Part shown: positions 8,843 to 37,500 of the stretch, in pieces
How positions within the stretch are numbered: position 1 is the stretch's first letter
How the letters are laid out: every line of letters begins with the position of its first letter
Assembly: GCA_951406725.2 (NCBI GenBank)
Contig: OX597819.1
Span: 64,046,001 to 64,110,000 of the forward strand
Source of the DNA: Octopus vulgaris
Taxonomy: Eukaryota
Length of the DNA stretch: 64,000 nucleotides
Direction of reading: 5' to 3'
Program-made: the position numbers and the translations under genes
Notes under the pieces: model-generated
Told to the model about the DNA's origin: nothing
Seen by the model: the letters and a program-made list of their open reading frames with translations, nothing else
The model's database searches: none

Positions 8843-9413
8843 AGCGGCGAGTTGGCAGAAACGTTAGCACGCCGGGTGAAATGCTTAGCGGGATTTCGTT
8901 TATATTGACGTTCCGAGTTCAAATCCGCCGAGGTCGACTTTGCCTTTCATCCTGTCGGGGTCAATTAAATAAATACCAGTTACATACTGGAGTCGATATA
9001 ATCGACTTAATCCGTTTGTATGTCCTTGTTTTCCATTCTGTTTAGCTCCTTGTGGGTAGTAATGACAGGTATTTCGTCTGCCGCTACGTTCTGAGTTCAA
9101 ATTCCACCGAGGTCGACTTTGCCTTTCATCCTCTCGGGGCCGATTAAATAAGTACCAGTTACGCCCTGGGATCGATTTAATCGACTTAATCCGTTTGTCT
9201 GTCCTTGTTTGTCCTCTCTGTGTTTAACCCCTTGGGGGTAGTAAAGAAATAGTTATTTCAGCTATAGTTCAAATTTCGCCGTGGTCGACTTTGCCTTTCA
9301 TCCTTTCGGGTGTGTTGATAAATTAACTACCAGTTGCCTACTGAGGTCAATCTAATCGACTGTCTCCCTCCCCTCAAAATTTCCGACCTTGTGCCTAGAG
9401 TAGAAAAGAATAA
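8843..9413 (+). mobile_element. SINE family A, head-to-tail trimer
   Basis: A-box-like gcggcgagttggcagaaacgttagc and B-box gagttcaaat; core gtcgactttgcctttcatcc occurs three times; tail ccttgtgcctagagtagaaaagaat. Confidence 0.88.
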
Positions 9414-24775: not shown

Positions 24776-25077
24776 AATGCTATTAAGTTAGACATGGCCT
24801 GGGCCAATAATGGCCGAAACCTATCAAAGTATCAAAGTATATATATATATATATATAATTAATCAATATAGGGTGGCAAAAAAATTTTGTAGAATTCTTT
24901 TGCCACCAGCGGCCTAGTGGGAAAAATTTAAATAGTCATAAACCATTTTTAAGTTCAACATCACAATCAAGGAACGGCCATAATAGGCCATTCACCCACT
25001 AGAAATAACAGCCAAAAGCTTCAACCGCAAAATAACTCCGTAAACCAGGAGAAAATTAAAAAAACATTTACCCTGTA

Positions 25078-25184
25078 ATTTCTTATACGATGCACCGTTT
25101 CGTCTACTGTTTAATGGTACACTAACCTGATTAAATTAAATCAAGCCAATCTACCATAGGCCCTTAGATTCATCAGTAAGAAAT
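25078..25184 (-). ncRNA. Type I hammerhead ribozyme, copy 1
   Basis: Minus strand: atttctta-CTGATGA-atcta..(long helix II)..tagac-GAAA-cggtgcatcg-TA-taagaaat. 8-bp helix I, 4-bp helix III with UGCA loop, GUA triplet. Confidence 0.8.
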
Positions 25185-25567
25185 AGCCAAGTCGGAACAG
25201 ATATTTTTCACGAGGCATTCCCGTCCCTGCCTCGGCAATATCTGACCTAAAATTTTCAAATCGTCGCACTCGCGCCAAATTTATCGGCAGCAAATAAATA
25301 TAAGCCGCCGATTCCATTACGGAATTAACCAGAAAATTCATAATTAATCAATATAGGGTGGCAAAAAAATTTTGTAGAATTCTTTTGCCACCAGCGGCCT
25401 AGTGGGAAAAATTTAAATAGTCATAAACCATTTTTAAGTTCAACATCACAATCAAGGAACGGCCATAATAGGCCATTCACCCACTAGAAATAACAGCCAA
25501 AAGCTTCAACCGCAAAATAACATCAATTCCGTAAACCAGGAGAAAATTAAAAAACATTTACCCTGTA

Positions 25568-25674
25568 ATTTCTTATACGATGCACCGTTTCGCCTACTGT
25601 TTAATGGTAAACTAACCTGATTAAATTAAATCAAGCCAATCTACCATAGGCCCTTAGATTCATCAGTAAGAAAT
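25568..25674 (-). ncRNA. Type I hammerhead ribozyme, copy 2
   Basis: Same fold 490 bp away; helix II base reads taggc-GAAA. Confidence 0.8.
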
Positions 25675-25787
25675 AGCCAAGTCGGAACAGATATTTTTCA
25701 CGAGGCATTCCCGTCCCTGCCTCGGCAATATCTGACCTAAAATTTTCAAATCGTCGCACTCGCGCCAAATTTATCGGCAGCAAATAA

Positions 25788-26110
<323 letters not shown>

Positions 26111-26137
26111 GAGAAAGAAGCAACAAGAATGGATAAG

Positions 26138-26230
26138 ATTTTAGTACAATCGTTTCATACAAAGACAGGCTTTATTAAAAGTTGCAAAAATTGCAGCATA
26201 TAAACGTGTCCCGTACTCATCAGCTAAAAT
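26138..26230 (-). ncRNA. Type I hammerhead ribozyme (inverted arm)
   Basis: Reverse complement of the motif at 26948-27038. Confidence 0.8.
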
Positions 26231-26947
26231 ACATGTGAGTTCTCTTGACATCTTAGTGGTTGAGGCTATACTCATGAAGTAATGTAGATAATTAAGTAAC
26301 ATAAACAGATTTCCAAAGTTCATTAAAGTTCATTTAGTCTCCCCCCCCTTTTTGCTCCCTCCTCCTTTATATTCTCTCTTTTCCTCTCTTTCCTTCCCTT
26401 TCTGTTCTTTGCCTCTCTAGAAAGCCCTTCAGCCTTTAAAAGTCAAATAGCTACAGTCTCTTGAAAATAGCAGTAATGTGATTAATGTGGCAAATACCTA
26501 ATCATATAGCAAGAATTGATACCTACCTCATTGTGTTCAACCATTGATAAATTTATCGTCTGTGAATATGAAATTCCTCTTCATTTCTCTGGAAATTTAC
26601 ATCTACACCATTGGAAATTGTACACCTATACAAAGGATTAATTCACCCTCTCTGTAATGCTAATAAGCAGGAATTGGTACCCACCTCGTTGTGATTAACC
26701 ATGGATAAATTTGTCGTCTGTGAGTATGTAATCCCTCCTCATATCTCTGGAAATTCATATGTACACTATGGATTAAGTCACCTTCTCTGTGATGCTATTA
26801 AAACTTTTTTAAAAATCTGTGATAAGACTGTACATCATCTTTAAAGAACTTTAATGAACTTTGGAAATCTGTTTATGTTACTTAATTATCTACATTACTT
26901 CATGAGTATAGCCTCAACCACTAAGATGTCTAAAGAACTCACATGTA

Positions 26948-27038
26948 TTTTAGCTGATGAGTACGGGACACGTTTATATGCTGCAATTTTTGCAACTTTT
27001 AATAAAGCCTGTCTTTGTATGAAACGATTGTACTAAAA
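26948..27038 (+). ncRNA. Type I hammerhead ribozyme
   Basis: ttttag-CTGATGA-gtacgggaca..tgtctttgtat-GAAA-cgattg-TA-ctaaaa: perfect 6-bp helix I, extended helix II, short near-palindromic helix III, GUA triplet. Confidence 0.82.
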
Positions 27039-27183
27039 ATTTATCCATTCTTGTTGCTTCTTTCTCGCTTATAATCACCCCACATTACTGTATTGTTAAA
27101 ACCGTATAGTTTTTTGGTGCATCTAAGTTAGGTACCATATTCAAGTAAATTCATTAAAATTGACTTGAATCTTTATTGCTTTT

Positions 27184-27690
<507 letters not shown>

Positions 27691-36874: not shown

Positions 36875-37500
36875 GGCGGCGAGCGGGTAGAATCGTTAGC
36901 ACGCCGGGCGAAATGCGTAACCGTATTTCGTCTGCCAGTACGTTCTGAGTTCAAATTCCGCCGAGGACGACTTTCCCTTTCATCCTTTCGGGGTCGATAA
37001 ATTAAATACCAGTTACGCACTGGGGTCGATATAATCGATTTAATCCGTTTGTCTGTCCCTGTTTGTCCCCTCTGTGTTTAGCCCCTTGTGGGTAGTAAAG
37101 AAATAGGTATTTCTTCTGCCGTTACGTTCAGAGTTCAAATTCCGCCGAGGTCGACTTTGCCTTTCATCCTTTTGGGGTTGATTAAATAAGTACCAGTTAA
37201 CCACTGGGGTCGATGTAATCGACTTAATCCCCTTGTCTGCCATTGTTTGTACCCCTTTATGTTTAGCCCCTTGTGGGCAATAAAGAAATAAAAATCCTTA
37301 GCACGCCGGGTGAAATGCTTAGCGGTGTTTCGTCTGTCGCAGCGTTCTGAGTTCAAATTCCGCCGAAGTTGACTCTGCCTCTCGTTCTGTCGGAGTGGAT
37401 GAAATAGGTACCAGTTACGCTTTGGGGTCGGTGTAATCGACTAGCCTCCTTCCCCACAAAATTGTCAAGGCCTTGTGCCCTAGAGTAGATATAATTATAA
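36875..37500 (+). mobile_element. SINE family A trimer with 11-bp TSD
   Basis: Three gagttcaaattccgccga cores; cacaatggtta at 36863-36873 and 37501-37511. Confidence 0.9.

Follow-up and report, generated by a model that had tools for sequence, protein, structure and literature searches.

The tandem repeat at 24855-25792 of the window (the whole 64,000-nt stretch of Octopus vulgaris DNA that was analysed) is one copy of a young, dispersed, non-coding family of non-LTR retrozymes comprising about 2,000 units. How does an element without a protein of its own move? Its insertions strongly support mobilisation by Penelope-like element (PLE) machinery, a point on which we have high confidence. As to what is copied, the pattern of sequence variation is best accounted for by a circular monomer RNA, which we regard as the probable template. 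The complete reading, a retrozyme variant copied in trans by the reverse transcriptase (RT)/endonuclease of a Hydra-clade PLE that rolls around a predicted 490-nt RNA circle, is the one we favour and consider reasonably likely. Insertion footprints and array haplotypes, read from the genome, here lend support to a mechanism that had already been proposed. The initial annotation had suggested a young retrozyme-like tandem hammerhead family, and the genome supports it; it had not recognised that the family is dispersed, that its insertions look PLE-made at their ends, that helix III is palindromic and would allow a double hammerhead, or that an autonomous PLE lies alongside.

The annotation had also described two units of ~490 bp lying in (TA)n. 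The near-identical tandem and the (TA)n flanks stand, two full units do not: TRF gives 24855-25792 a period of 490, 1.9 copies and 98% matches. Numbered in monomer coordinates (q, where q1 is the first base after the hammerhead cut on the minus strand), the insertion runs q274-490, q1-490 and q1-236 along the minus strand (Table 1), and its units are told apart by two substitutions and by indels of 6 nt and 1 nt. In a structural scan of the window, CUGAUGA/GAAA/GUA turns up together with a helix I of 8 bp, and H17 falls at 25576 and 25086; none of 30 dinucleotide shuffles of the window gives a hammerhead match. The claim of two type I cores on the minus strand is thereby confirmed, and the two cuts proposed, 490 nt apart and releasing a 490-nt monomer, are correct as predictions. 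Assembled contigs, which are blind to strand, ends and circles, include some whose loose ends, of (TA)n, begin at 24960; in contigs from runs that are only guessed to be RNA, the retrozyme and the neighbouring PLE end occur at broadly similar depth, which is neutral for expression. Next to the insertion, ~60 bp at 24778-24838 match the 3' end of another repeat, which extends further upstream beside locus L065; this is probably what is left of a LINE's truncated end, with (TA)n after it. Elsewhere in the window, 8908-9244 and 36923-37290 are two-copy tandems (period ~180) of a common short interspersed repeat.

Table 1. Features of the retrozyme insertion and of the adjacent PLE end (positions in the window).
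Feature	Position	Strand	Remarks
Whole single-armed retrozyme insertion	24855..25792	-	5'-truncated at q274, one full monomer, 3' 'long' fixed end q236
Hammerhead motif 1	25568..25674	-	helix I 25674-25667 with 25575-25568; core from 25666; predicted cut 25576/25575
Hammerhead motif 2	25078..25184	-	core from 25176; predicted cut 25086/25085
Predicted 490-nt monomer between cut sites	25086..25575	-	longest ORF 66 aa, not conserved
'Tail' of ~105 nt between the two fixed 3' ends	24855..24960	-	short end near 24960 = q128-133; long end 24855 = q231-236
Hairpin inside the ~105-nt tail	24872-24907		
(TA)n target tract, 3' junction	24838..24854	.	
(TA)n tract, 5' junction	25793..26109	.	common to the neighbouring PLE insertion
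Truncated, inverted end of an autonomous PLE (family B, assigned to the Hydra clade)	26110..27186	+	separate insertion; candidate mobiliser type
Hammerheads of the neighbouring PLE end, one per arm	26954-27032 and 26145-26223	+ and -	

Is the repeat peculiar to this locus? The exact core pattern occurs 1,953 times genome-wide and a control pattern not at all, so the copy-number check returned a dispersed family. With a 271-bp query, the best 40 of 2,621 candidates are 98-100% identical and lie on many chromosomes; tandem and inverted copies this alike in so many places refute an assembly artefact as the source of the duplication. A relaxed core pattern (154 matches vs 13 for its control) led to two sister lineages (L298-L327), one at 83% and one at 67% identity, whose units measure 481 nt and have two 3' ends as in the main family. 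Overlapping views of one insertion were counted once (10 of the 30 loci of the first genome search and most of a later set). A coding role for the 490-nt unit was rejected, the longest frame in the monomer being 66 aa and frames from the same start varying from 7 to 76 aa across copies, and no RT or GIY-YIG ORF was seen in or attached to the inspected retrozyme copies. The family thus has the marks of a non-LTR retrozyme: tandem units with a type I hammerhead, non-coding, mobile and dispersed in high copy, with an autonomous PLE co-existing in the genome. Outside the family, a fragment at L191:2707-2842 is 70% identical to the structured q153-291 region, in a different context, and is possibly an older relative.

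The ribozyme itself has CUGANGA, GAAA and NUH around three helices with helix I open, as in type I hammerheads. Across 49 haplotypes drawn from 219 units the core is constant except at N7, where all four bases occur. Helix II is a 68-nt domain made of a 5-bp base (AUCUA/UAGAC), a 7x7 internal loop and a long stem; the initial annotation had recognised the long stem and misassigned its base. The A.C mismatch it reported at the base of helix II is present in the window copies as a subfamily trait, since the first pair is A-U in 61, A.C in 33, U.U in 4 and A.G in 1 of 99 locus-level counts, and the usual G10.1-C11.1 pair, typical and not obligatory, is absent. Searching the window with the Rfam hammerhead models, a check the annotation had put forward, failed: neither the gathering score nor E<=10 brings up a match. 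The motif is nevertheless real, and the miss is likely due to the long helix II. In an ungapped alignment of 41 of the 49 haplotypes (eight with indels left out), 96.4% of helix cells are paired, vs 29-46% in slid controls. Four pairs show two-sided change, a number reached by 0 of 500 shuffles, a control that relatedness can inflate. In the sister lineages helices I, II and III are replaced in sequence and keep their pairing; in the whole monomer two-sided change affects 14 of the 89 predicted pairs, and covariation extends to the stems around the two 3' ends. From this covariation, the ribozyme looks to be under selection.

Folding supports the motifs too, with z-scores of -3.9 and -6.0 for the two in the window and -5.8 for the monomer. 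But does a single motif reach its active form? In the preferred fold of the monomer the core pairs with helix III, whose own pair probability is ~0.02, and adopting the active fold takes 3 kcal/mol in one window copy and 7 in the other. Nearly all haplotypes have a self-complementary helix III (a loop change from UGCA to UAUA keeps the symmetry), with 4 bp in the monomer and 12 bp in the dimer. The double-hammerhead fold beats two single folds in five of six arrays, by 9.8 kcal/mol in the window, with a pair probability of 0.85 in the window dimer and 0-0.3 in the other arrays. As the core is mispaired in the monomer and the double form favoured in most arrays, these models make it likely that cleavage depends on the dimer, and the retention of a palindromic helix III likewise favours double-hammerhead cleavage.

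The insertions have a characteristic footprint. All 81 with visible flanks have (TA)n on one or both sides, 68 of them on both. Their 3' ends fall at q128-133 (short) or q231-236 (long), ~105 nt apart, and their 5' ends are variable. Single-armed forms number 22 and two-armed, head-to-head forms 57; the latter comprise 49 long+short, one short+short, no long+long and seven with an unclassified end, so that a rule of one long and one short end holds for 49 of the 50 classified (p=4.5e-14). Two fixed 3' ends on opposite arms, variable 5' truncation and head-to-head inversion are what PLE-type insertion leaves. How do the two arms arise? Of the 11 insertions whose arms both measure <490 nt, seven have arms that each extend beyond the other, and the arms of short two-armed insertions disagree at just 7 of the 1,143 columns they share; we therefore read the arms as two separate RNA-templated starts on one haplotype. 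Fold-back copying of one arm from the other was rejected as a general rule, because those seven cannot arise so; near-symmetric junctions make up 7 of 47 (47 of the 49 long+short loci), with ~3 expected. Twin priming in the manner of L1, ending in a collision at the second primer site, was rejected as well, the 5' ends being spread over the unit. After ~50 spurious hairpin matches at q184 were set aside, 19 of ~135 5' ends lie in q1-30, a T-rich stretch, vs ~8 expected and with none at q1; such a modest excess after the cut site is what a linear cut precursor would give.

Which enzyme could be responsible? GIY-YIG and two Hydra-type RT queries indicate at least five PLE families in the genome (these searches, like those for the retrozyme, scored the best 40 or best 150 of thousands of candidates). 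One family, B, lies ~320 bp from the retrozyme in the window, with ends 37 and 154 nt after its cut site. The search for it gave 2,116 candidates, and in each of the 15 copies with both ends seen the second arm stops at the short site. The L238 copy has an open 984-aa frame with RWK, DKT, CxCX5C, CxxC and CxH motifs; these, the (TA)n target and the hammerhead fit section 11 of PMC8557442, and family B appears on sequence grounds to be a Hydra-clade PLE. For family B, a Pfam search with a 690-aa part returned no family; a PDB search with the PLE ORF gave no match. L238, L243, L251 and L280 represent four young Hydra-type families with open frames of 842-1,091 aa; intact frames occur in at least four such families, and intact copies with the footprint of the retrozyme are plentiful. 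These families (B, B', C and D) have (TA)n targets, two ends ~65-160 nt apart, and hammerheads with 40-60-nt helix II domains and a self-complementary helix III; family B frames carry N-rich inserts, and family C has A.C at the base of helix II. Comparison with 177 loci from the PLE searches found no homology between the retrozyme and PLE termini other than inserted retrozyme copies, and a short likeness upstream of the short end of family B is too weak to use. Since no sampled PLE shares sequence with the unit, the Hydra clade is inferred as mobiliser, and another PLE clade that also targets (TA)n may be involved. As further observations on PLEs, full-length 3.6-kb elements stand in head-to-tail tandems at L278-L279 and L282, 99.9% identical within and ~99% between loci, and may reflect circular templates for autonomous elements too; and an abundant family at L111-L120 has a 781-aa RT+GIY-YIG frame and an upstream ORF of up to 479 aa, with no hammerhead detected by structural scans.

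The arrays speak to the template. Arms of at least 490 nt make up 77 of 139, and 20 of 139 reach at least 1,470 nt; the longest, at L061, has 14 tandem units. Because arms exceed one unit in this way, reverse transcription must have crossed the ribozyme cut site repeatedly. Units diverge by 0.26% within insertions vs 5.2% between them and rare alleles are on both arms in 33 of 34 cases, so each array copies one template. Of 491 observations of alleles common to several loci, 459 show the allele fixed in every unit. A further 21 alleles are fixed at a single locus, whereas 74 unit-private alleles are each confined to one locus; with new alleles fixed array-wide and unit-private ones locus-bound, repeated passage through a single unit is needed. 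The 34 multi-unit loci have up to 30 haplotypes, a number that may be too high as a result of coverage masking. Within arrays the variation is star-like (61 private vs 4 subset-shared variants at 32 loci). The non-uniform arrays are L061, with two variants in subsets of units, and L004 and L074, with 10-11 private variants each; there are also seven alleles in the minority at two or more loci. A monomer circle copied by the rolling-circle route, as put forward in PMC7229834 and PMC4209133, would be expected to leave just that trace: passage through one unit, with multimerisation immediately after.

The favoured mechanism would run as follows. Retrozyme arrays would be transcribed, and hammerheads, paired by way of the self-complementary helix III, would act as a double ribozyme in cleavage, releasing 490-nt monomers that a host ligase would circularise, as proposed in PMC7229834. 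The PLE protein would then nick both (TA)n strands and start reverse transcription at q~130 and q~235 of one template. Each cDNA would run for a variable length, often for more than one turn and past the cut site, until the two joined head to head, or one joined the target, as in the window.

Several observations tell against a circle: the misfolding of the monomer, the excess of 5' ends at q1-30, the few mixed arrays and the seven alleles minor in two or more loci. Published work adds that in vitro the template of PLEs is mainly uncleaved RNA (PMC11167929) and that only one of nine frog dimers cleaved (bioRxiv 10.64898/2026.07.22.740005). Could the same family and enzyme then use an uncleaved or partly cleaved linear multimer, transcribed from a uniform donor array, with circles as by-products? 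The dispensability of hammerhead cleavage for PLE insertion in vitro (PMC11167929), a monomer fold that disfavours the active core, the 5' ends near the cut site (long single arms ending at q8-16 among them) and the heterogeneity of L061, L004 and L074 all fit such a template. Truncation, however, would shorten arrays in each generation, and the fixation of the 21 single-locus alleles across units and arms, with the 74 unit-private ones bound to their loci, speaks against it; we consider it the lesser explanation, unlikely though worth serious weight. Rolling-circle replication at the RNA level, followed by reverse transcription of the multimer, would leave the same trace as rolling reverse transcription.

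Two alternatives remain. The units might be amplified terminal repeats (pLTRs) of an unsampled autonomous PLE, and the arrays truncation products, as the resemblance of frog retrozymes to pLTRs (bioRxiv 10.64898/2026.07.22.740005) and the scoring of only the best 40 or 150 candidates would allow. Yet the 81 inspected insertions reveal no common non-repeat or coding flank at their ends, lineages 33% apart keep a non-coding unit of 480-490 nt, and family B copies run into their own ORF where retrozyme copies never do, which makes such an origin improbable. Hardly credible at all is the expansion and homogenisation of single insertions at the DNA level, in the manner of a minisatellite: the subset-shared variants in the 14-unit arm of L061 have that look, whereas the excess of private over subset-shared variants across loci, the multimeric state of both inverted arms with alleles in common, and array ends at fixed start sites do not.

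With circular copying by a PLE as the preferred reading, a bolder version may be entertained, to which we give somewhat less than even credence. Here, ribozyme circles of 480-490 nt would be long-lived parasites of Hydra-clade PLEs, recognised by RNA structure alone in the lack of sequence homology; each insertion would record one dimeric enzyme, two fixed-site starts and one circle copied for up to 14 turns, and the tandem Hydra-type PLEs would have taken the same route. The movement of animal retrozymes, and the enzyme behind it, have so far been proposed and not shown. This family supplies the predicted footprints in quantity, namely PLE-type ends and single-haplotype multimers, as well as a hammerhead form that Rfam misses. 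If the reading is true, the genome offers direct evidence that animal retrozymes undergo rolling-circle retrotransposition, and the presence of the PLE tail on only one arm is explained. With intact candidate enzymes in the same genome and exact RNA start sites, the rolling-circle model and the origin of tail and inversion become testable in vitro. In the literature searched, neither a cephalopod retrozyme nor a paper using insertion ends or array haplotypes as retrozyme evidence was found (subscription journals, supplements, Repbase and Dfam may hold the family), and the available text of PMC13282606 lacks the word 'ribozyme'.

How does the family compare with known systems? According to the available text of PMC7229834 and bioRxiv 10.64898/2026.07.22.740005, metazoan non-LTR retrozymes are likewise non-coding tandem units with one type I hammerhead each, dispersed in high copy and co-existing with PLEs, and PMC7229834 proposed circle-templated insertion by these elements; the preprint covers vertebrates, insects and one coral. 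The octopus unit has 490 nt vs 170-400 (PMC7229834) and 51-972 (the preprint), and differs in its 68-nt helix II domain, its A-U or A.C base pair and its escape from Rfam. An axolotl hammerhead motif has U.U at the helix II base (PMC7229834). Transposon matches are given for 24 of 57 frog families in the preprint, whereas no pLTR homologue occurs here among 177 loci. Newt and axolotl satellites and the minimal hammerheads of PLEs (PMC4209133, PMC7229834) resemble the family in a palindromic helix III and a double-hammerhead fold in tandems, with a helix III of 1-2 bp in the dimeric hammerheads described there vs 4 bp (monomer) or 12 bp (dimer) here.

PLE insertions as described in the accessible parts of PMC3846280, PMC8557442 and PMC11167929 share two fixed 3' ends, variable 5' ends, head-to-head inversion, an AT-rich target and a one-sided tail, which PMC11167929 traces to two internal start sites of reverse transcription. 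In contrast, the retrozyme is without an ORF, its tail is ~105 nt long and not 30-40, both its arms are multimeric, and the one-long-one-short rule is quantified. Closest in form are the Hydra-clade PLEs (PMC8557442; families B, B', C and D), with their (TA)n targeting, long-helix-II hammerheads, self-complementary helix III and two ends; they differ in being autonomous, in a 6-nt helix III insert vs 10 nt in the retrozyme, and in having no detectable sequence homology to it.
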